Source: a virus
Length of the DNA: 28,936 nt
IMG/VR virus record: IMGVR_UViG_3300030103_004108
Strand: one strand, 5' to 3'
Below the pieces are notes generated by a model. The model searched no databases and was not told where the DNA came from. It saw only the letters and a program-made list of their open reading frames with translations. Positions 3,112 to 25,680 of this stretch are shown here, in pieces. The number at the start of each line of letters is the position of its first letter. Position 1 is the first letter of the stretch. The position numbers were made by a program, and so were the translations under genes.

Positions 3112-3621
3112 TTAAAGTACCCATCCTTCGAAATTGTTGTAACTGTTTGGAAAAACGTCTGAACCTGTGTTTGCGTTGTATTCCGGAAACAAGTTATTGT
3201 TTTGACAAATGTAGTCTATAAACCTTTCTTTGTAGTGTTCGTATGTTTTGCGTTCACGTTCCATCAAAAAGTCTATTTCGTTTTTACTTACCGTTTCACT
3301 ATTTTCTGCACCGTGTTTATATACGCCTTTGTTGCCTATTGTAATAGCCGCAAAAGGTAGAAATTCTAACATAGATGCGTGGATAAGGCACGGTTTAATA
3401 TAAGTCGTTAGAAGTGATAAATACGGATCGGCTAAAGTACCTGCTATGATGTCTGCTTGAATCTTTTCTAGTAGCTTCGTACCTAACATACCTTGTATGT
3501 GTATGTCTTGTGCTATAGAAACGTACTGAATAAACTTGTCTACGTCTACGTTGCCGTTTACAGTAGTAAACTTTCGAACATCGTTTTGTGAAATTAAAAG
3601 TGCTTTTGCCATTATTGCCAA
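3112..3621 (-). CDS. Head-tail connector/adaptor-like protein (gp6-like), tentative
   Basis: 169 aa, overlapping the portal gene stop by 10 nt. The helical pattern (...FIQYVSIAQDIHIQGMLGTKLLEKI...YIKPCLIH...) resembles head-tail connector families. Assignment rests on pattern memory only. Confidence 0.4.
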   Translation of the reverse strand: MAIMAKALLISQNDVRKFTTVNGNVDVDKFIQYVSIAQDIHIQGMLGTKLLEKIQADIIAGTLADPYLSLLTTYIKPCLIHASMLEFLPFAAITIGNKGVYKHGAENSETVSKNEIDFLMERERKTYEHYKERFIDYICQNNNLFPEYNANTGSDVFPNSYNNFEGWVL

Positions 3622-5393
3622 TATTTTCTTGTGTTAGGATTGTTTGGTGAATATCCTTTAGTCCGTGTATCTCTTGGTCTTGTGCTAACTAATTTTGGGT
3701 TTCTAATTTCATAACCGTACTTCTTAGCTTTTGCACCTGCAATTTGTCTTGCTCTTGGACTTCTTACGTCAATTCCTGTGCCTTCGAAAGCCACAAAAAT
3801 AAGTTTGTTCCACCGATGAAAACAGTTTGGGCCTCCGTGGTGTAACCATATCGAATAAACGTCTGAGCCAAACTCACCGAAGCCGGGGTTTACAGGTTTG
3901 TTAGTCATCGCAAGTATATCTTCTTTACGATATATCTTGTTAGCAGTCATCATAGCTTTACAAAACTTCCTAGTTTTGCTTGTCGTTTTACCTGCATAAA
4001 CATACCTAGTAATAAACTTAATACCGTCTATCACTTCGTCTTGTTCACTTTTTGCGTTTGGAAAAGCAGTACCTGTAGAAACTAGGTTTATTAATTTGTC
4101 TTTAAAAGATAGTTCCGTTTTTATGTCGCTAGATAGTAGTTCGTTTTCTTTGTCGTCTGTGTCGTAGTCTACTTCGTATTCGTCAAGCAAAAGCCAATCT
4201 TCTTTAGGTTCTTCACCTAAGTCTATAAAGTCTTGTAAGTCCTTGTTTATATCGCTTAGTTCTACACCTGTTTCTTCTTCAAGTTCTTCACCGTCTAAAG
4301 GCACACCAATTTCTATAAATTCAAGTGGCTTAAGTGTCTTAAAGTACAAGTTCAAGCTAATTCCGTTGTAAGCAAGTATTTCGTCAAAGGCATCTAGCAG
4401 CATTTCTTGCATCGGTTTGATAACCATATTCGAAAATAGTGCGAAACTGTCTTTTAGTTCGTCTGAATTACTACTGAAGCCATTACTTGAAGCAATACCA
4501 AAAAGTAAAGGTGAAGTAACGTTATGCGCTAACATTATCTTGCGTAAACATTCTTCGCTTAAAGTAGAATACAAATCGGGTGCATCGTTTACAGGCATCG
4601 CATCAACCGTTGTCTTACTTTCTGCGTTGTTGTTAAAGGCAACTATAAGCTTTTCGCCATACGTTCCTGTCAAATTGTTTAAGACTTTGCTTTTTATTAA
4701 GTGTTGTTGGTCTTCACTTGGTACACCGTTGTTAAAGTTTACTACCGTTCTACCACTGAAACCGTTGTTTACTTCGTTTATAAGATAAGTGCTTATGTCT
4801 TCTTCTAAAGCACAATAAGGTAAACCGCCTGTATAGTCTACAAGTGCGAAATATTTCATTCCTACAGAATAAGGTCGAACCATCATAATTTCTAGACCTT
4901 CTTTTGAATAGCCGTAAGCAGGTATTCTTTTAGGTTTGTACTTCTTAACGTCTGACCAATCGTCACTATAGTAGTAAGCTTCTATTTCACCTTCAGAATT
5001 GCACTTTTCCGGTCTTAGTAATTGTACAGGTATGTGATGAACGTTTACTATCTTCTTACGATCTTTAGAATAAATTACTTGCATTGCACACTGACCTAGT
5101 AGTTTAAGGTCTGTTACAAGTCTTCTTACATCCGTCTTTTTGAATAAAGACATCATTACGGCGTAGTCGTTTGGCTTTACCTTTGCATCTGTAGCGTTTA
5201 GACCTTTACCGTACACTAAGCGTGTTATGTTGTTTATAATAGCGTTATTCGTAGTGCTATTAGTGTACATATCTATAAGGTGATTGTAATATAAATTGTC
5301 CTCACCGTATTCAACCCAATCGTTACGCTTACTTTCTGTAATTACAGGTGCTTCGTAAGTGCTTAATTCCAATAAGTGTATGTTGTTACTCAT
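3612..5393 (-). CDS. Portal protein fused to a MuF/SPP1 gp7-like head-morphogenesis domain
   Basis: 593 aa. The N-terminal ~380 aa are portal-like (WVEYGEDNLYYNHLIDMYTNSTTNNAIINNITRLVYGKG). An acidic linker follows (EELEEETGVELSD...DEYEVDYDTDD). The C-terminus carries RKFCKAMM...HHGGPNCFHRW, reminiscent of the MuF minor-head motif. No other ORF in the genome is portal-sized. Confidence 0.55.
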   Translation of the reverse strand: MSNNIHLLELSTYEAPVITESKRNDWVEYGEDNLYYNHLIDMYTNSTTNNAIINNITRLVYGKGLNATDAKVKPNDYAVMMSLFKKTDVRRLVTDLKLLGQCAMQVIYSKDRKKIVNVHHIPVQLLRPEKCNSEGEIEAYYYSDDWSDVKKYKPKRIPAYGYSKEGLEIMMVRPYSVGMKYFALVDYTGGLPYCALEEDISTYLINEVNNGFSGRTVVNFNNGVPSEDQQHLIKSKVLNNLTGTYGEKLIVAFNNNAESKTTVDAMPVNDAPDLYSTLSEECLRKIMLAHNVTSPLLFGIASSNGFSSNSDELKDSFALFSNMVIKPMQEMLLDAFDEILAYNGISLNLYFKTLKPLEFIEIGVPLDGEELEEETGVELSDINKDLQDFIDLGEEPKEDWLLLDEYEVDYDTDDKENELLSSDIKTELSFKDKLINLVSTGTAFPNAKSEQDEVIDGIKFITRYVYAGKTTSKTRKFCKAMMTANKIYRKEDILAMTNKPVNPGFGEFGSDVYSIWLHHGGPNCFHRWNKLIFVAFEGTGIDVRSPRARQIAGAKAKKYGYEIRNPKLVSTRPRDTRTKGYSPNNPNTRKYWQ

Positions 5394-7453: not shown

Positions 7454-8110
7454 TTATTTTTTACTTAGTTTCTCCATTACTCTATCCATAGTGCTCTTTG
7501 CTCTATTTTTAGAGAATTGATGAAGTTCTATTTTCTCTTCGTTTTCCGGGTTGTGTGTAATAGGTTTAGCAGCAGGTTCTTCGTTAGAAAGTTCTACTGT
7601 TTCTTCTACTACTTCTTCAGAAGTAACTTCTTCTGTAGTTTCGTCTTTTGAAAATTCTTCTTTGTTGTTGATCTTAGAAAGATGCTCTACTTCTGCTTTC
7701 AGTTCTTCGTTCTCTTTTTTCAAAGCTTCAATTTCACTAAAGAAAGTTTCTTTAACAATTGACTCTACAGTTTTCTTAACAGGTTTTGTTTCTTCAGTCG
7801 CAGCTTCTACTTCTTCTTCTTTAGTTTCAACTTCTTCTTCAACTACTTCTTCTACTTCCTCTTTTTTAATTTCTGCTATAATACCTTCTTCTTCGATTAC
7901 AAGCATTTCACCTTCATCACCGTCAAGTTTATATTCACCTACAGGCATTGGTATTTTTTGTTCGTCTTCTGTTACGATAGCAACTTGAAAACCTGCAGCA
8001 AATTCTTCTGCTTCGATTCGTGTTTGTCCGTCTTCAAGACGTCTTTCTGCTAACTTAACTTCCATTCCTAAAAGTTCTCTTACTTTGTTTAAAATTGAAT
8101 TATCTTTCAT
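7454..8110 (-). CDS. Scaffolding-like protein (very acidic, Glu-rich coiled coil)
   Basis: 218 aa with long EE(V/T)EE tracts, immediately upstream of the capsid gene. Confidence 0.5.
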   Translation of the reverse strand: MKDNSILNKVRELLGMEVKLAERRLEDGQTRIEAEEFAAGFQVAIVTEDEQKIPMPVGEYKLDGDEGEMLVIEEEGIIAEIKKEEVEEVVEEEVETKEEEVEAATEETKPVKKTVESIVKETFFSEIEALKKENEELKAEVEHLSKINNKEEFSKDETTEEVTSEEVVEETVELSNEEPAAKPITHNPENEEKIELHQFSKNRAKSTMDRVMEKLSKK

Positions 8111-8129
8111 TTTGTTTATTTATTCGTGT

Positions 8130-8651
8130 TTATAGGTTTTTTCTTAAATTGTCTTGCATTTTTTTGTATTTAGCAATAGGCAACTTTAAACCTAAATCTT
8201 TTGCTGCTGCTTCTGCTTTTTGTAAATTTTTGTCAAATATATTCAAAAGGTTTTGCGCTTTTTTAACTTTTGGAGCTTTGCTTTTTTCTGCTTTTGCAAC
8301 TTCTGCTTCATAACCTTCTATTTGATTTTCATTACTTTTCAAAGATTTATTAGCATCTTCTAGTTGTCTTTTTGCTGCAAGAAACTTATCTTCTAAATCA
8401 AAATACTTATCTGAAGCTTTTTCACGATTTGTTAAAAGTTTCTGTCTTGCTTTTACTTCTCTATCGACAACTTTTTGCATATCCAACATACGCTTATTGT
8501 CTTGTTTTAATCCGTTTAAAATATCTTCACCTTGATCTAACGCTTTGTTCAAATCGTCAATAAGTCCAAGTTCTACTTTCTGTGCAGCTAACTTTGTTAT
8601 CTTATCTTCTTTAGCAAGTTTGCTAAATACTTTGTTCATTTGTGGATTCAT
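8130..8651 (-). CDS. Hypothetical coiled-coil protein (173 aa, Lys/Glu-rich)
   Basis: ORF between the protease and scaffold genes, preceded by the conserved leader AAGTTATTATAGT-ATG. Confidence 0.65.
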   Translation of the reverse strand: MNPQMNKVFSKLAKEDKITKLAAQKVELGLIDDLNKALDQGEDILNGLKQDNKRMLDMQKVVDREVKARQKLLTNREKASDKYFDLEDKFLAAKRQLEDANKSLKSNENQIEGYEAEVAKAEKSKAPKVKKAQNLLNIFDKNLQKAEAAAKDLGLKLPIAKYKKMQDNLRKNL

Positions 8652-15559: not shown

Positions 15560-16110
15560 TTCTTAAAATTTTCTTTTGTAATTTGGTCAAATAGTTTTTC
15601 CATATCAAAGCCGAACATTTCCATAAGTTCATCCGGCAGTCTATTGTAATACTTTTCGAATGGTTTTGTAAAAAATAATGTAGGTTTTAGACCTTTAGAA
15701 TATATGCTTCGTGCTATAATGTAGCCCATAGACTTATATGACATAAATCTGCCTGTCTCCTTGTCTTTCCATTGAAAACCTTTTTGCTTTACCCACTTAG
15801 TCATAATTCCCGACATACCGCCTTTAGCTTTGCCTATAAGACTACTATTCGTACCAAACTTATAAGGTGATTCCGTTTGTCTGTTGCCTTTGTTACTTGA
15901 CTTGTTACCTTTAACACCTTGATCAACGAAAGCACCGTAACTTTCCATCTCAAAGCTTATTTGAATACTGTTCTTAGACTCCTTTACAAAACCTCTTAGA
16001 CTATTGTTAAGATTGCCTTTCGTTTTTAAGTTGCTCTTAGCTTCACGAATGACATTGTCTTTAAAGTCTTCTAGTAGTTCTTGTATGTTGTCAAATTGTG
16101 ACATCAGCAA
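15556..16110 (-). CDS. HK97 gp10-like head-tail joining / tail-completion protein, tentative
   Basis: 184 aa. LRGFVKES...ISFEMESYGAFVDQGV and the C-terminal ...KPTLFFTKPFE resemble the gp10-family pattern (tG.L..si ... Y..fvE.G ... PF). Assigned by position in the neck module. Confidence 0.4.
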   Translation of the reverse strand: MLMSQFDNIQELLEDFKDNVIREAKSNLKTKGNLNNSLRGFVKESKNSIQISFEMESYGAFVDQGVKGNKSSNKGNRQTESPYKFGTNSSLIGKAKGGMSGIMTKWVKQKGFQWKDKETGRFMSYKSMGYIIARSIYSKGLKPTLFFTKPFEKYYNRLPDELMEMFGFDMEKLFDQITKENFKK

Positions 16111-16556
16111 ATAGTCATTTCATTAGGTATAAGAATATCTGCAGTCATAGTCCATCCGGCAAGTTTGTTTTCAAACCTATCTACAAAAGGTTCGCAGCTT
16201 GGGTTTCCGTCTATTTGGAATTTATCCGTGTATAGGTCGCCTCTTAATAACAGTTCATAACACCGTGTTAACACCTGTAACTGTGTGTTAAGTATGTAAA
16301 GTTCGTTGTCATTGCCGTCAAACTTATTTTCTTCTTCGTCTTTTGTTATGTCGACAATATCCATAGCCAATATAGATATGTTGTAACGCACCACGTTACC
16401 TTCTAGTGTTGCACTATTGGCTACGATGTGGATTAGTGGGAATATGGTTTGTTTACTTAAATCTATGTCGAACAGGTTTCCTTGCGTGACTGTGTTTACT
16501 AGTACGTCTGCTTCAAAGTGTGTTCTTAGTTTGTCTATTATGTCGAAATAATTCAT
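16104..16556 (-). CDS. Neck / tail-terminator-like protein (150 aa), tentative
   Basis: The ORF start ATG overlaps the TAA of the -1 frame of the preceding gene (TAATG). Its size and position are typical of head-closure or tail-terminator proteins. Confidence 0.35.
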   Translation of the reverse strand: MNYFDIIDKLRTHFEADVLVNTVTQGNLFDIDLSKQTIFPLIHIVANSATLEGNVVRYNISILAMDIVDITKDEEENKFDGNDNELYILNTQLQVLTRCYELLLRGDLYTDKFQIDGNPSCEPFVDRFENKLAGWTMTADILIPNEMTIC

Positions 16557-16840
16557 TATCGTTTCATTTGTTGTTTAAGTTCTCTTGCTTCGATTTCGTG
16601 TTTTTGCTTTTTGAAGCTGAGATAGGTGAGACATTTAGTAAGTCTGTATTTTGTAACTTGGTCATACTTTGTAATGTCTCCGTCAGCCAATCCATAGATA
16701 GAAGTGTACCATCCCCAATTTTTTCCGAATTGAGCTCTTTCTGAGTATTGGTTGAATCCTTCGTCATCTTCTTCAGTTCTTTCTTCAAATAAGTCTGCGT
16801 AGCTTTCAGTAATTCTACGCCTAAACTCGACAAAAAAAAA
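16556..16840 (-). CDS. Alternative -1 frame C-terminal coding segment (ATG-less, absent from the ORF track)
   Basis: Hand translation after the T9 run: FFFVEFRRRITESYADLFEERTEEDDEGFNQYSERAQFGKNWGWYTSIYGLADGDITKYDQVTKYRLTKCLTYLSFKKQKHEIEARELKQQMKR*. The frame has 113 stop-free codons, from the TAA at 16900..16898 down to the TAA at 16558..16556. Codon usage matches the capsid gene (GAA/GAC/TAC/TTC/AAC). Confidence 0.55.
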   Translation of the reverse strand, partial: FFFVEFRRRITESYADLFEERTEEDDEGFNQYSERAQFGKNWGWYTSIYGLADGDITKYDQVTKYRLTKCLTYLSFKKQKHEIEARELKQQMKR

Positions 16841-17319
16841 CTGCTGCTTATTGCTACGTCTAAAGGTGCAAACTTCATCAAGTCTTGCATATCTTCGTTA
16901 GGTTCGTAGTCTGCTATTTCATACTTGTCTTTGTGTCGTGTTGTGATAGGTCTATACATTACGCTTAACGCTTTGTGGTACGTCTTCCAATCTTTTAAGT
17001 AGTTCTCCAAATCGACATATTCACCAAAGCTTATGTCATCAAACTTAGGTATAAAGCCAAATTCTATGTCTTTGATTTTAAACTGTCTTATCAATTGTGG
17101 CTTTTCACTAAACACCTTTGTAAAGTGTGCGATTAATTCGTTCAAGTGCTTCATCTTTATTTTAGCAACTTCGCCTAACTTAATACCACAGAATATCTGT
17201 ATCATCTTCTGCGCTATAAATTCTTCATCGTTGCTATTATCTTTCATTTCAATGAATTGTTGATACCTTGTTAGTGGTATTTCAGATAAGCTTGTAGGAA
17301 GTGTTATGTTTAACTTCAT
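16564..17319 (-). CDS. Hypothetical protein (251 aa in the 0 frame) containing a T9 slippery run; possible chaperone-like gene with an alternative -1 C-terminus
   Basis: ORF from the track, preceded by the conserved leader. Coding-strand T9 at 16840..16832 encodes S-F-F-L. See the -1 frame feature and the first finding. Confidence 0.6.
   Translation of the reverse strand: MKLNITLPTSLSEIPLTRYQQFIEMKDNSNDEEFIAQKMIQIFCGIKLGEVAKIKMKHLNELIAHFTKVFSEKPQLIRQFKIKDIEFGFIPKFDDISFGEYVDLENYLKDWKTYHKALSVMYRPITTRHKDKYEIADYEPNEDMQDLMKFAPLDVAISSSFFLSSLGVELLKATQTYLKKELKKMTKDSTNTQKELNSEKIGDGTLLSMDWLTETLQSMTKLQNTDLLNVSPISASKSKNTKSKQENLNNK
16832..16840 (-). promoter_or_regulatory. Homopolymer T9 (U UUU UUU-type slippery sequence) with a downstream hairpin at 16797..16820
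   Basis: A9 on the plus strand. On the minus sense, 11 nt downstream, lies GCGTAG-N12-CTACGC (6-bp stem, 4 G-C pairs). Confidence 0.5.
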
Positions 17320-17352: not shown

Positions 17353-18513
17353 TTACAGCACATTGTAGCTGCCGTAGTTCTTGTTCATTCCTAGCGTTTC
17401 CATTTCGTGGTAACGCACCGCATCTATTGCGTGGTTGTAGTTGTCTATGGGTTTGTTTAGTCTCTTACCTGTCTTGTCTGTATCCCAACAATAAGACCTA
17501 AGTTCTTTTATTAGATTCGTGCTATTAGACGTTACTAAATAGTTTTCACGTTGCATAACATCAATACCGTAGTTAATACTGTCACGTCCTTTCGTTACGC
17601 CTTTTATCGTGATTCCTGCTAGTTGTAGTGTACGAATACTTTTAGGTTCTGCACTATCTGCGTATACAGGTACGTCTTTAGGCAACTTCTTTGCTATGTC
17701 TGAATTTAGCAGACCTGTTTGGTATACTATTTCGTTTAGTATTCGTGTTTCGTTATGCTTGTAGATTTCTATGCAGCTTGTCGGATCGTTTGTATATCCA
17801 AAGTCAAGTCCTATGCCTACAAGTCGTGCTTCTTTTGGTATTGTGTCTATCTGCTTCCAATTACTAAATATGATGCCTTCAAGTTTGCCCATAAGACCGT
17901 TTACATAAACATCCACCCACGATTTCCAATAGTTAGAAGTTTCTGCTTTCTTTATGTTCTTTTCTATTTGCTCTACTATGCCTACGTCTAAAGCTTCGTT
18001 GTCTTTGTATGTTAAGATAATCTTTTCTGCATCTTCTTGTCCTTCAAGTTCTGTCTGTACCCAAAATTCAGCAGTTGGGTTGTAGTCTAAAAATACTTCG
18101 TCTTTTGTTCTAATAGACATTTCTAAAAAACTTTCAAAAGATATTTGATTACACTCATTGATATATAAAATATTTCTTCTACCTCCACGAAGTTTCTTAC
18201 TATCATCTGCACTAAAAAATTCTATAAAGCTGCCGTTTGCAAATTCGTATTTTAGTAGTGACTTATTAAATCGTTCGTCTACAAAACGGTTAGTCCACTT
18301 CATACATTTCAAGAAATCACGAAGCGCACCTCTACGCAAATGTGGTATGCTCTCAGCTACTACGCTAATTTCTAAGCCACCTTTCTTAGCTGCTTTGTCT
18401 ATAAGTATTGGAAGTATTCCAAAAGTCTTTCCTGCAGAAGTTCCACCTTGTATAATCTTGATTCGTTTTTTTAACGCTAAGATTTTATTTATCGCTGTCG
18501 TTCTCTTTAACAT
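17353..18513 (-). CDS. terL: Terminase large subunit (PBSX/Terminase_3-like)
   Basis: 386 aa. Walker A is IIQGGTSAGKT, a Walker-B-like ILYINE is present, and the C-terminal half is nuclease-like (GLDFGYTNDPT ... ADSAEP). It overlaps terS by 29 nt. Confidence 0.85.
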   Translation of the reverse strand: MLKRTTAINKILALKKRIKIIQGGTSAGKTFGILPILIDKAAKKGGLEISVVAESIPHLRRGALRDFLKCMKWTNRFVDERFNKSLLKYEFANGSFIEFFSADDSKKLRGGRRNILYINECNQISFESFLEMSIRTKDEVFLDYNPTAEFWVQTELEGQEDAEKIILTYKDNEALDVGIVEQIEKNIKKAETSNYWKSWVDVYVNGLMGKLEGIIFSNWKQIDTIPKEARLVGIGLDFGYTNDPTSCIEIYKHNETRILNEIVYQTGLLNSDIAKKLPKDVPVYADSAEPKSIRTLQLAGITIKGVTKGRDSINYGIDVMQRENYLVTSNSTNLIKELRSYCWDTDKTGKRLNKPIDNYNHAIDAVRYHEMETLGMNKNYGSYNVL

Positions 18514-19295: not shown

Positions 19296-19419
19296 TTGTT
19301 TTATTTAAGATTCTTTTTAGTTCTTCTATCTGTAGTAGTGTTTCATTGTCTTCTTCTGCATTGCCGTTTATCTTGCTTTGCAGTCTTTTAATTTCTGCTT
19401 TTATGTCTTTTATTCGCAT
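19261..19419 (-). CDS. Small coiled-coil ORF (52 aa), not in the track; tentative
   Basis: Hand translation: MRIKDIKAEIKRLQSKINGNAEEDNETLLQIEELKRILNKTNGKESNKKTND. The ATG at 19419 overlaps the sigma gene stop. The ORF fills the 114-nt gap before the next gene. Confidence 0.4.
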   Translation of the reverse strand: MRIKDIKAEIKRLQSKINGNAEEDNETLLQIEELKRILNKTNGKESNKKTND

Positions 19420-19949
19420 AAGTGTTCGTAGTCATCGTTTACATAATCTTCGTAGTCTTCGCCTACATTTATGCGTATTTCGTTCTTGCAATACTTTAGC
19501 GTTTGAAATATGCTGCTTGTGCTTATTCGTGTTTCTTCAGAAAGTTTTCTTATTGACTTACCACTTTCACGATACAGGTTAAACAACATTTGATCATACC
19601 AATGCCAAGTTTCTACTTCACTATCTATTTTTTTGATTAACGAAGTAAAAGCTTCTGTTTCTTCTATGTAGTCGTATTCTACGCCTAAGTTGTACACTTC
19701 TTCTATATTAACTTTCTTATGCTTGTTTTGTTGTTTACGATAATCGTGTACTAAATTGTAAAGTACACATCTTATGTAGTATTTGTTTACTGTTCCGTCT
19801 TCCTGTAGTATGCGTTCCGGTGTACAATACTTACTAATCTTTATGTACATTTCTTGTACTATGTCTTCTGCTAAGTCATCAACACCTAAACTTTTTACAA
19901 TTCGTAAATAGTCTTCGTGATGTTCTGCAACTTTACTAAGCCATTTCAT
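19410..19949 (-). CDS. Sigma-70 family (ECF-like, two-domain) RNA polymerase sigma factor
   Basis: 179 aa. The region-2-like segment is AEDIVQEMYIKISKY ... YIRCVLYNLVHDYRKQQ. The region-4 HTH-like segment is LFNLYRESGKSIRKLSEETRISTSSIFQTLKYCKNEIR. Confidence 0.65.
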   Translation of the reverse strand: MKWLSKVAEHHEDYLRIVKSLGVDDLAEDIVQEMYIKISKYCTPERILQEDGTVNKYYIRCVLYNLVHDYRKQQNKHKKVNIEEVYNLGVEYDYIEETEAFTSLIKKIDSEVETWHWYDQMLFNLYRESGKSIRKLSEETRISTSSIFQTLKYCKNEIRINVGEDYEDYVNDDYEHLCE

Positions 19950-24170: not shown

Positions 24171-25025
24171 TCATCTTATATTTTTTAGTGGGTTTACGCC
24201 TCCTATTTCAAAACCTAAACCACGATTAAATTCACAAAATATATAGTCTTCTAATAACGTTTGTTGACCTCCTGTATCTGTGTCTTTTATTTTGTCTACA
24301 GAAATTAAAGTTACATATTTCATCGATTCGTGTTTTACTAGACGGTGTATAACTAGAAAGTCATCGCATCTATTTAAGAAGCTTTTACCACCTTCTATGT
24401 GTGCAGCCATAGGTGGTTTTAGATGTCCTGCCCAATTATGACCTGTAGGAAATAAATTTCCACCTCTACCACTTTCAGAAGTTGGGTGCGTGTTTATGTA
24501 GATAGTCTTGCCTGTTTCGTTTACAAACTGTCGTGACATATTTAAAAACTCGTAGTTACCTTCGTAACCCATCTTTCTATCAAGTCCGGTATAAGGATCA
24601 ATTAAACAAGCGTTAGCATCTGACTGTCTAAATAGTTCTAAAAGTTCTGCAGGTTTGTAAAGCTTTGAATTGTCTATAAAGTCAAAGTATTGTTCTAAGT
24701 ATGTAGATGCGCTTGTTATTTGTTTATGGCTTAAAGTCTTGTACGGTTTGCCTGTAAACATTTGTATCATATCACGAAGAATCTGTCCGTAGCTATTTTC
24801 TCCTGCCCATAGACAAAACTTTAAATCGTGTTTAAGTGCAAGTGTCAAAAAGTAGAAAAAAACGAAGTAGGATTTTCCAACGTTGTCGTGTCCTAAAATT
24901 ATATTCAGTTGTTTAGGTTTAAATACTATGTGCTTGTCAAGTTCGCAACCTATTTCTAAACCTTGTTTTATTTTACCGTCTCTATAGTCAAGTAAGTATT
25001 TTAATTGTTCGCCTTTTCTAAGCAT
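24171..25025 (-). CDS. DnaB/RecA-fold P-loop replicative helicase-like ATPase
   Basis: 284 aa. Walker A is ILGHDNVGKS and Walker B is ANACLIDPY. INTHPTSESGR is a motif-H-like segment. It overlaps the upstream replication gene by 8 nt. Confidence 0.6.
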   Translation of the reverse strand: MLRKGEQLKYLLDYRDGKIKQGLEIGCELDKHIVFKPKQLNIILGHDNVGKSYFVFFYFLTLALKHDLKFCLWAGENSYGQILRDMIQMFTGKPYKTLSHKQITSASTYLEQYFDFIDNSKLYKPAELLELFRQSDANACLIDPYTGLDRKMGYEGNYEFLNMSRQFVNETGKTIYINTHPTSESGRGGNLFPTGHNWAGHLKPPMAAHIEGGKSFLNRCDDFLVIHRLVKHESMKYVTLISVDKIKDTDTGGQQTLLEDYIFCEFNRGLGFEIGGVNPLKNIR

Positions 25026-25581
25026 ATCCTAACCTTTTTGCTTTTTGTGTAAGTTTGTCTTCTTCGTGTTTTGGTTCTTTCTTTAACCAATTCTTTGCAG
25101 TCAAATATAGTGATTTGTATTTCTTGTTTTGTTTAAAGTTTTCAATGCTATCTAAACACGAATCTATTTGCTCTTTTGTGTAGTCTACCTGTAACTTGTT
25201 AAACTGTTCTACAGACATAGACAGATGAGCGAAGCTCCTATATATATCTTTTACATTAACTATTACATTATCGGTTATTTCTGTTATAGGTTTATAACAA
25301 GTGTTATCGTTGTTATCTTTATTCCATCGTTTAGCCATTCCTTTTTTACCTGCTTCGCTTTTCTTCTTTCGTATCTGTTCGTATTTGCGTAGGTCACGCT
25401 TTAAGTTTTGTTTAATTGGTTCAAAACAAACTTCTGTAAGTAAGTCCTCTGTTTCCGGGTTCAAGTCGTTGACGTATTCTAAAACGTGCTTAAACAACTT
25501 ACCTGCTTGTTCGTCACTCAACTTCTGAACCGTGTGTATTAAGTCGCAATAAAGTAAAAAGCTTTTCTTGTTATCTGCCAT
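25018..25581 (-). CDS. Replisome-organiser-like replication protein (start moved to MADNKK, 187 aa)
   Basis: SFLLYCDLIHTVQKLSDEQAGKLFKHVLEYVN ... KRDLRKYEQIRKKKSEAGKKG resembles the N-terminal domain of phage replication-organiser / DUF6291-type proteins. The track start at 25626 would place a T9-containing leader inside the ORF. Confidence 0.4.
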   Translation of the reverse strand: MADNKKSFLLYCDLIHTVQKLSDEQAGKLFKHVLEYVNDLNPETEDLLTEVCFEPIKQNLKRDLRKYEQIRKKKSEAGKKGMAKRWNKDNNDNTCYKPITEITDNVIVNVKDIYRSFAHLSMSVEQFNKLQVDYTKEQIDSCLDSIENFKQNKKYKSLYLTAKNWLKKEPKHEEDKLTQKAKRLGYA

Positions 25582-25680
25582 AAGGTTATAAAAAAAAAGT
25601 GTAACGCTTTCGGTGGGTAGGAACACTTACTAACGTCACACTTAAAAAATTTGATTGTCCTACCAACATTGCAAAGGTAA

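Follow-up and report, generated by a model that had tools for sequence, protein, structure and literature searches.

A conserved run of nine T in the gene after terL as a probable recoding site with two overlapping C-terminal tails in a large family of phages

Why would a phage gene carry, beyond a homopolymer, two long open frames that cover the same DNA, and how would both of them be read? The question is raised by a viral sequence from IMG/VR (record IMGVR_UViG_3300030103_004108), the whole 28,936-nt stretch of which (35% G+C, every long open reading frame (ORF) on the minus strand) is referred to here as the window. In the gene directly downstream of terL, which encodes the terminase large subunit, nine consecutive T on the coding strand (T9) are followed by two frames, 0 and -1, that both remain open over a long distance, and a preliminary description made from the sequence alone had read this as a candidate programmed -1 frameshift or, alternatively, as a homopolymer error. 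The conservation of this layout among relatives and the substitution pattern past the run indicate a genuine and ancient recoding site that annotation has missed and whose dual-coding layout is unusual; we regard it as very probable that this recoding takes place and serves a function. The complete reading, i.e., one gene recoded into two isoforms by slippage of RNA polymerase, is given a probability of roughly 0.5 on these sequence comparisons.

The run lies at 16832..16840 (minus strand; U9 in the mRNA, A9 in the template), where it is seen directly as A9 on the plus strand, and the coding strand across it reads ...AGC AGC AGT TTT TTT TTG TCG AGT TTA GGC..., with nine T at 16840..16832. In the 0 frame, the ORF 17319..16564 specifies 251 aa, consisting of an N-terminal part common to both isoforms (residues 1 to ~160; 16841..17319, minus strand) and a 0-frame tail (LSSLGVELLKATQTYLKKEL...NLNNK; 16564..16831, minus strand) that covers the dual-coding overlap and ends at a TGA (16566..16564). 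A shift to the -1 frame inside the run leads instead to a 254-aa product, ...SSSFFF-VEFRRRITESY...WGWY...CLTYL...QQMKR, the tail of which (F-VEFRRRITESY onwards; 16556..16834, minus strand) ends at a TAA (16558..16556). The 251-aa and 254-aa products have residues 1-163 in common and differ in their C-termini, the 0-frame junction reading ...SSSFFLSSLGVELLK and the trans-frame junction ...FAPLDVAISSSFFFVEFR. The -1 frame is free of stops for 113 codons, starting from a TAA at 16900..16898 (16898..16900, minus strand), which shuts it 5′ of the run and sets the 5′ limit for -1 entry in the window, and its terminal TAA overlaps as TAATG the start of the next gene (150 aa; 16104..16556, minus strand; phrog_30964, unknown function), while the 0-frame stop falls 8 nt 5′ of that ATG. 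The +1 frame past the run, reading ...FFFCRI, is shut after 6 codons in the window and within 3-21 codons among the loci compared. The T9 run, the 113-codon open -1 frame, the lack of an ATG in that frame until near its end and the TAATG overlap had all been put forward in the preliminary description, together with two predicted products of about 251 and 254 aa with different C-termini, and all of these sequence features are present where it had placed them.

Is this arrangement peculiar to the window? A search with the fused protein returned >3000 clusters (90% identity), drawn from JGI, ENA, Tara, NCBI and Logan assemblies; at 50% identity, the family comprises 2742 clusters. In most top matches, a protein of 250-251 aa aligns with no more than the initial 62-64% of the query and thus has the same out-of-frame layout as the window; in-frame homologues, which are rare, align over 100% of the fused sequence, and ~90% of the full-length top representatives of the 50% clusters are of the 0-frame type, with tails of 45-100 aa. 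From IMG/VR, 160 loci were retrieved with two different queries and their N- and C-terminal halves were placed by tblastn, 154 loci with both halves serving for the run counts and 144 complete loci for the counts of openness and of ATG codons. In 148 of the 154 loci, the run is T9 and the C-terminal half lies in the -1 frame, and a further three have T10 in the same frame relation through a flanking-base substitution, which brings the out-of-frame total to 151, with three loci in frame. N-terminal identity to the window falls to ~55-60% among these loci. No ATG occurs before codon 60 of the -1 ORF past the run in any of the 144 complete loci, and the upstream stop in the -1 frame lies anywhere from 1 to 61 codons 5′ of the run (1-3 codons in 41 loci); having no ATG of its own, the -1 tail could thus be entered only at the run. 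The order of terL followed by this gene is also found in metagenomic relatives and in the cultured phage P12024L (see below), and an ATGA or TAATG overlap with the next gene is kept in relatives.

The DNA of five in-frame exceptions has a T7, T10 or T11 run, uninterrupted in every case, and in all five the other tail is still open and recognizable over 50-90 codons; long-read contigs are the source of two of them, one at 1.32x and one pilon-polished. The idea that such 'single-ORF' homologues represent a resolved in-frame lineage was rejected on the basis of these T7/T10/T11 variants and of the open second frame, and no lineage in which the shift has been resolved into a plain in-frame gene was found among the loci and exceptions examined. 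Some further single-ORF proteins (P0003, P0005 and P0121) are 'hybrids' in which the 0-frame tail switches to the -1 tail 3 to 45 residues past the junction, P0003 being longer by 14 aa as well; this implies a second downstream indel, recombination or faulty assembly. At one other locus (IMGVR_UViG_3300009068_000961), a stop cuts the -1 tail after 41 codons (...GQFTKQW*) and the 0-frame tail is open for 90 codons, the opposite of what would be expected if only the -1 tail mattered, although this may be a sequencing error.

Among GenBank phage records, the sole relatives are the Nonlabens (Persicivirga) phages P12024L and P12024S, both with the T9 layout. A near-identity search of the phage GenBank records with 6 kb of the window gave no match. 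In P12024L, the gene after terL, gp40, reads CTT TTT TTT TAT around the run; the -1 frame continues as FFLSFRERLRDLYPELY...KWGWY... and aligns with the -1 tail of the window from the FF junction onwards (E = 9e-6), and the N-domain is 28% identical to that of the window. The 0 frame of P12024L stops ~25 codons past the run, so that the long overlap is not present in every member, though it is in the clade of the window and in many others. RefSeq lists gp40 (175 aa) and gp41 (55 aa) as separate hypothetical proteins in both P12024L (NC_018272, 4001..4695) and P12024S (NC_018271); they correspond to the 0-frame product and to the distal -1 tail of one recoded gene, the T9 of which lies at 4443..4451 of P12024L. 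The conservation in relatives that the preliminary description had regarded as telling, i.e., that of a slippery run and of the -1 C-terminal domain, is therefore seen both in the metagenomic loci and in the two isolates. In the literature on P12024-type, Flavobacterium or Bacteroidota phages, we found no prior description of this frameshift.

Are both tails maintained as proteins? The 0-frame tail is open for 70-90 codons in 144 of 144 loci. When the synonymous codons of the -1 tail were resampled with the codon usage of the family (5000 trials, 17 diverse relatives), the median distance at which the 0 frame was shut was 0-26 codons, and for all 17 sequences no more than 1/5000 trials attained the observed 70-89 codons (P <= 2e-4), so that the coexistence of two long open frames, already noted as unusual in the preliminary description, goes beyond chance. 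Substitutions within the overlap tell the same: read in the -1 frame, and compared with the N-terminal part for the same pairs of sequences, the overlap has a lower proportion of synonymous differences (pS; 0.149 vs 0.321 and 0.282 vs 0.515). At conserved degenerate codons, the entropy of third positions amounts to 0.68 bits in the overlap vs 1.16 upstream (p = 2.7e-7), with a decrease in every degeneracy class, and third-position diversity drops from ~0.54 to ~0.37 exactly at the run (95% confidence interval of the difference 0.12-0.23). The N-terminal part evolves like ordinary single coding DNA (third-position diversity 0.54; ratio of nonsynonymous to synonymous differences, pN/pS, 0.03-0.27), and pN/pS is 0.14-0.49 for the -1 tail, the more strongly constrained of the two frames (pos3 > pos1 > pos2).

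Stop avoidance alone is excluded as the cause of this synonymous deficit, since new 0-frame stops would arise from only 9.3% of synonymous changes. Because every -1 third position coincides with a second position in the 0 frame, the deficit gauges selection on the 0-frame protein. The naive pN/pS of the 0-frame tail (0.7-0.95) was discarded as uninformative, the sites counted as 'synonymous' in it falling on first positions of -1 codons. Among clusters with less than 50% identity, the 0-frame tail retains the pattern FF[WY]xL..ELL.....YL...G.G[IT]...L.E.L..L, and the tail of the window is 40% identical (E = 1e-12) to that of the distant representative P0140, whose whole 0-frame protein is 45% identical. 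These patterns argue that the 0-frame tail is under purifying selection. The preliminary description had thus been right that this tail is open, but its characterization as simply low in complexity does not hold, given motifs conserved throughout the family; its view that the -1 tail reads like a folded domain fits with the stronger conservation of that tail and with its homologue in P12024L.

The run itself bears on the mechanism. When the loci are aligned on an invariant downstream TTTAGG, the run occurs in two registers 2 nt apart, with seven T columns invariant. The rarer register is found in the clade of the window, in a small group that falls within the other register at 92-96% nucleotide identity, and at one further locus (L027). 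These changes of register, in two or three lineages, keep the run at a length of nine (10 in L027), and a natural T7 or T8 run was never seen among members. On the coding strand of long ORFs, ~870 kb of related phage DNA contain no other run of T>=9, vs 16 of T8. As a test for slippage, the behaviour of length and register and the scarcity of T>=9 are suggestive, not decisive. A homopolymer of about nine or more A or T matches the RNA:DNA hybrid in length. Runs of 9A/9T are of a length typically prone to slippage in bacteria, many of which show evident selection against it (PMC1088944, PMC5009743), and programmed slippage is known from Shigella mxiE, where one extra non-templated U at a U-run fuses two ORFs, and from the A9 of Thermus dnaX (PMC1088944, PMC5009743).

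A ribosomal slip site is also contained in the run, as a heptamer of the X XXY YYZ type (U UUU UUU or U UUU UUG) is in phase within every T9 register, in agreement with the permissive U UUU UUU heptamer of the preliminary description. The hairpin that it had proposed as a further slip signal (GCGTAG-N12-CTACGC; 16797..16820, minus strand) does lie 11 nt past the run, with -11.0 kcal/mol for the folded 42-nt stretch, but a role as stimulator is doubtful: RNAalifold gave 0 conserved pairs downstream of, upstream of and across the site, and in 28 diverse relatives 38% of cells were paired at the positions of the hairpin, the same as in shuffled and slid controls. The hairpin is specific to the clade of the window and probably not a functional stimulator. 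A canonical ribosomal cassette would have a conserved hairpin or pseudoknot 5-9 nt downstream or an element like a Shine-Dalgarno (SD) sequence upstream; no such purine-rich motif is conserved upstream of the run in the consensus.

How do these observations weigh on the possible explanations? Sequencing or assembly error, or decay of a pseudogene, would make the true gene an in-frame 254-aa or a decaying ORF; homopolymers are indeed error-prone on some platforms, and a few database entries are in frame, but the same out-of-frame state recurs in hundreds of independent assemblies from all the sources searched as well as in two isolates, and selection on both frames is something that error cannot yield. 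We therefore consider the homopolymer error entertained in the preliminary description extremely improbable. Phase variation at the DNA level, in which the tract would flip between T9 and T10 by replication slippage and each genome would encode one isoform, appears very unlikely: rare T7, T10 and T11 variants do exist among the assemblies, but with both states heritable and needed, comparable frequencies would be expected in consensus assemblies rather than 151 loci out of frame and three in frame, and two of the in-frame contigs are long-read and hence homopolymer-error-prone. Another alternative, compatible with either shift mechanism, denies the 0-frame tail any function at the protein level: it would be kept free of stops only to let unshifted ribosomes terminate beside the start of the next gene, for translational coupling and the avoidance of polarity, the -1 fusion being the sole functional full-length product and the 0-frame product acting through its N-domain only. 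This would suit the position of the 0-frame stop, 5-20 nt before the -1 stop and the next ATG in the first 77 loci, the short 0 frame of P12024L, the naive pN/pS of 0.7-0.95 and the predicted disorder at the end of the tail. However, avoiding stops would bar 9.3% of synonymous changes, against a 45-55% fall in synonymous divergence, and the 0-frame motifs persist below 50% identity. In many members, moreover, the 0 frame terminates 25-35 codons ahead of the -1 stop, so that coupling is not always kept. In the AlphaFold2 (AF2) model of the 0-frame isoform (98-sequence family alignment), a helix spanning residues 153-191 runs unbroken across the junction (predicted local distance difference test, pLDDT, of 85, 81 and 67 per decade) and stays confident over 20-25 residues into the 0-frame tail, to be followed by a further helix (205-220) and by the disordered basic end. 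A functionless 0-frame tail is thus unlikely, though not to the degree of the two preceding alternatives.

As for the shift itself, the same products would result from programmed -1 ribosomal frameshifting, with tRNA-Phe in both the P and A sites slipping at U UUU UUU or U UUU UUG while the mRNA stays U9. This is the mechanism of the well-known phage G/GT genes (PMC5009743), and the in-phase heptamer, the invariance of seven T columns over all clades and the hairpin downstream of the run in the window speak for it. The absence of a conserved stimulatory structure up- or downstream speaks against it, the hairpin being clade-specific, as do the lack of natural T7 or T8 runs, in which the heptamer would survive, and the retention of length nine when the register moves. 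Bacteroidota hosts make little use of Shine-Dalgarno pairing, which makes a stimulator of the SD type unlikely as well. We hold ribosomal frameshifting to be a possible account, at clearly less than even odds. If the recoding is real, slippage of RNA polymerase is favoured over it, at slightly better than even odds, because the run is strictly nine T where seven would serve the ribosome, and because no stimulator is conserved. A stronger form of this reading—an obligatory programmed transcriptional slippage with three products (251, 254 and ~166 aa) and functional C-terminal domains in both long ones, amounting to an ancient 'domain swap by slippage'—can be advanced only tentatively, at somewhat under even odds.

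According to the preferred reading, transcriptional slippage on a dual-coding gene, a single start codon would thus give rise to two full-length isoforms of the protein encoded after terL. Standard decoding would produce the 251-aa form, with the N-domain and a basic helical 0-frame tail, and a -1 shift inside T9 would produce the 254-aa form, with the same N-domain and the WGWY/CLTYL tail; the ~270 nt past the run would encode both tails, each kept by selection. RNA polymerase would slip on T9/A9, in the manner of Shigella mxiE, so that a fraction of the transcripts would carry U10 and have the -1 tail in one frame with the N-domain. From U8 or U11 transcripts, a truncated, N-domain-only product of ~166 aa would result, because the +1 frame is shut within a few codons past the run; an N-domain-only form of this kind exists as a database entry with T11 (P0021). 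Speculatively, and by analogy with gpG/gpGT, the protein might be an assembly factor with a separate binding partner for each C-terminus, a guess prompted by the leading position of the gene in the late morphogenesis module and by the combination of a shared N-domain with two C-termini.

Several points weigh against this reading. The in-phase heptamer within every T9 leaves ribosomal -1 frameshifting fully feasible, and both mechanisms may contribute; according to Baranov et al., certain AT-rich organisms may suppress slippage at 9A/9T; and constraints from the flanking codons (V/L-F-F-L or S-F-F-F-V) can explain part of the conservation of nine T. Some 0-frame motifs are forced by the -1 frame, e.g., G.G by the WGW codons, and the AF2 model has pLDDT <50 beyond residue 222 of the 0-frame isoform, while the -1 tail, modelled from 8 sequences only, is helical with low confidence (pLDDT 45-66). 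The assembly-factor role is a guess from gene position; the protein has no match in Pfam or NCBIfam, and neither of the two AF2 models has a Foldseek match in the PDB with E < 1.

Other searches for homology brought no informative match. The N-domain, a mixed alpha/beta fold in the AF2 model (pLDDT 80-91), matches phrog_32199 (unknown function), the sole match across Pfam, NCBIfam and PHROGs, and a profile search against PDB sequences gave no match. Foldseek against BFVD returned 40 matches, all of them uncharacterized phage proteins, the only one labelled 'tail assembly chaperone' having E ~1. A weak structural match to a 191-aa protein of Flavobacterium phage 6H (KC959568) was dropped, as that gene has only T6 and no recognizable -1 tail. 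Two unannotated gaps in phage 6H, 10048..10351 (~300 nt) and 7736..8152 (~420 nt), follow this 191-aa protein and a 184-aa ORF upstream of a 1198-aa tail protein, and contain neither T9 nor a recognizable trans-frame tail.

In the window, which is probably a near-complete genome (related contigs measure 29-31 kb), the genes on the minus strand run from a sigma-like protein (19410..19949), encoded just upstream of terS, through a 132-aa ORF, terS and terL (17353..18513, minus strand; matches to Pfam Terminase_3 and Terminase_3C and to PHROG terminase large subunits) to the two-frame gene. Four ORFs (150, 184, 370 and 797 aa) separate the latter from a 630-aa ORF resembling a tape measure protein (TMP), after which come an XkdF-type protease, ORFs of 173 and 218 aa, a 309-aa ORF (phrog_11320, unknown function) that is possibly the capsid gene of the preliminary description, ORFs of 195 and 116 aa, the portal gene (3612..5393) and fibre-like proteins. 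As the phage encodes this sigma-like protein, the late genes are presumably transcribed by the host RNA polymerase. The order of the module is unusual in that the portal gene is at the opposite end of the structural block from terL, and tail-like genes together with the TMP-like gene precede the protease and 309-aa (possibly capsid) genes.

Other homopolymers occur in these phages. A second T9 in the window (25590..25598, minus strand) is intergenic or in a 5′ leader, preceding by 10 nt the probable start ATGGCAGAT (25580) of an ORF at 25018..25626, and could be a site of reiterative transcription or merely part of a U-rich leader. The sequence TTACCTTTGCAA (~25671..25660), ~65-75 nt upstream of it, resembles the -7 promoter element of Bacteroidota, TAnnTTTG. 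In three of the related loci, A9-A10 runs are found within long open frames upstream of terL (L042 at 454 and 1038; L066 at 1029; L076 at 238), in contexts that are alike (GGGC-A10-TAGACCAGAAAT and TTGT-A9-TAAACCAGATC), and these are possible further slippage-prone sites of this phage group.

The family is large and abundant, stems mostly from marine samples and includes the P12024-type flavobacterial phages that ocean virome studies often report. As currently annotated, also in the RefSeq entries for P12024L and P12024S, the gene is split or its -1 domain missed, so that gene callers and protein catalogues contain just one product out of two. An uncharacterized, near-universal morphogenesis protein of these phages is indicated, and the arrangement would extend phage recoding past the G/GT chaperone paradigm to another gene, with a different type of signal, a bare T9 without conserved stimulator, and a different layout of equal-sized isoforms and a ~90-codon dual-coding stretch. 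If true, obligatory slippage would be, to our knowledge, the first such case in phages of Bacteroidota, a host phylum with unusual translation initiation and promoters, and would be conserved over thousands of marine phage lineages. As the cultured phages and their host, Persicivirga/Nonlabens sp. IMCC12024, exist, the choice between a transcriptional and a ribosomal shift is directly testable.

Among known systems, P12024L and P12024S are the true homologues, with the gene after terL and a T9 followed by the conserved tail in the -1 frame; they differ in their short overlap and in being annotated as two hypothetical proteins without frameshift. The gpG/gpGT pair of lambda and the chaperone frameshifts of other long-tailed phages likewise involve a late-module gene with a shared N-domain and a -1 extension of ~90 aa without its own start, and a shift conserved over a very wide group of phages. 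In contrast, the gene described here directly follows terL instead of being flanked by the genes for the major tail protein and the tape measure, its site is T9 rather than a heptamer of the G GGA AAG type, and no similarity in sequence or fold to known chaperones was found (Pfam, NCBIfam, PDB, BFVD). As the preliminary description had already remarked, the layout also departs from the classic G/GT one in that the 0 frame continues for ~90 codons past the slip site (70-92 in the clade) instead of stopping soon, which results in two isoforms of equal size and a 270-nt dual-coding overlap.

The closest parallel for the proposed mechanism is mxiE of Shigella flexneri (mxiEa/mxiEb), where a long U-run on the coding strand gives access to a downstream ORF through one extra non-templated U, no RNA stimulator is needed, and the longer functional product depends on the slip (PMC1088944, PMC5009743). 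That gene, however, encodes a bacterial regulator with a short 0-frame product, whereas in the phage gene the 0 frame runs ~90 codons under apparent selection and slippage is as yet an inferred event. Programmed slippage on nine A or T, giving mixed mRNA and alternative C-termini, would also be shared with dnaX of Thermus thermophilus (A9) and with the 9A/9T of insertion sequence (IS) elements (PMC1088944); neither has a long overlap under dual selection, the slipped products of dnaX being truncated by near stops in both other frames and OrfA being fused to OrfB in the IS elements. For the overlap itself, the likeness is to eukaryotic RNA viruses without homology to this gene, i.e., P3/P3N-PIPO of potyviruses, where the viral RNA-dependent RNA polymerase acts on GA6, and p6/p6* of HIV gag-pol, where ribosomes shift at a U UUU UUA heptamer with a stem-loop: in both, the slip site is followed by 60-115 dual-coding codons in which synonymous variation is depressed and both proteins are functional.

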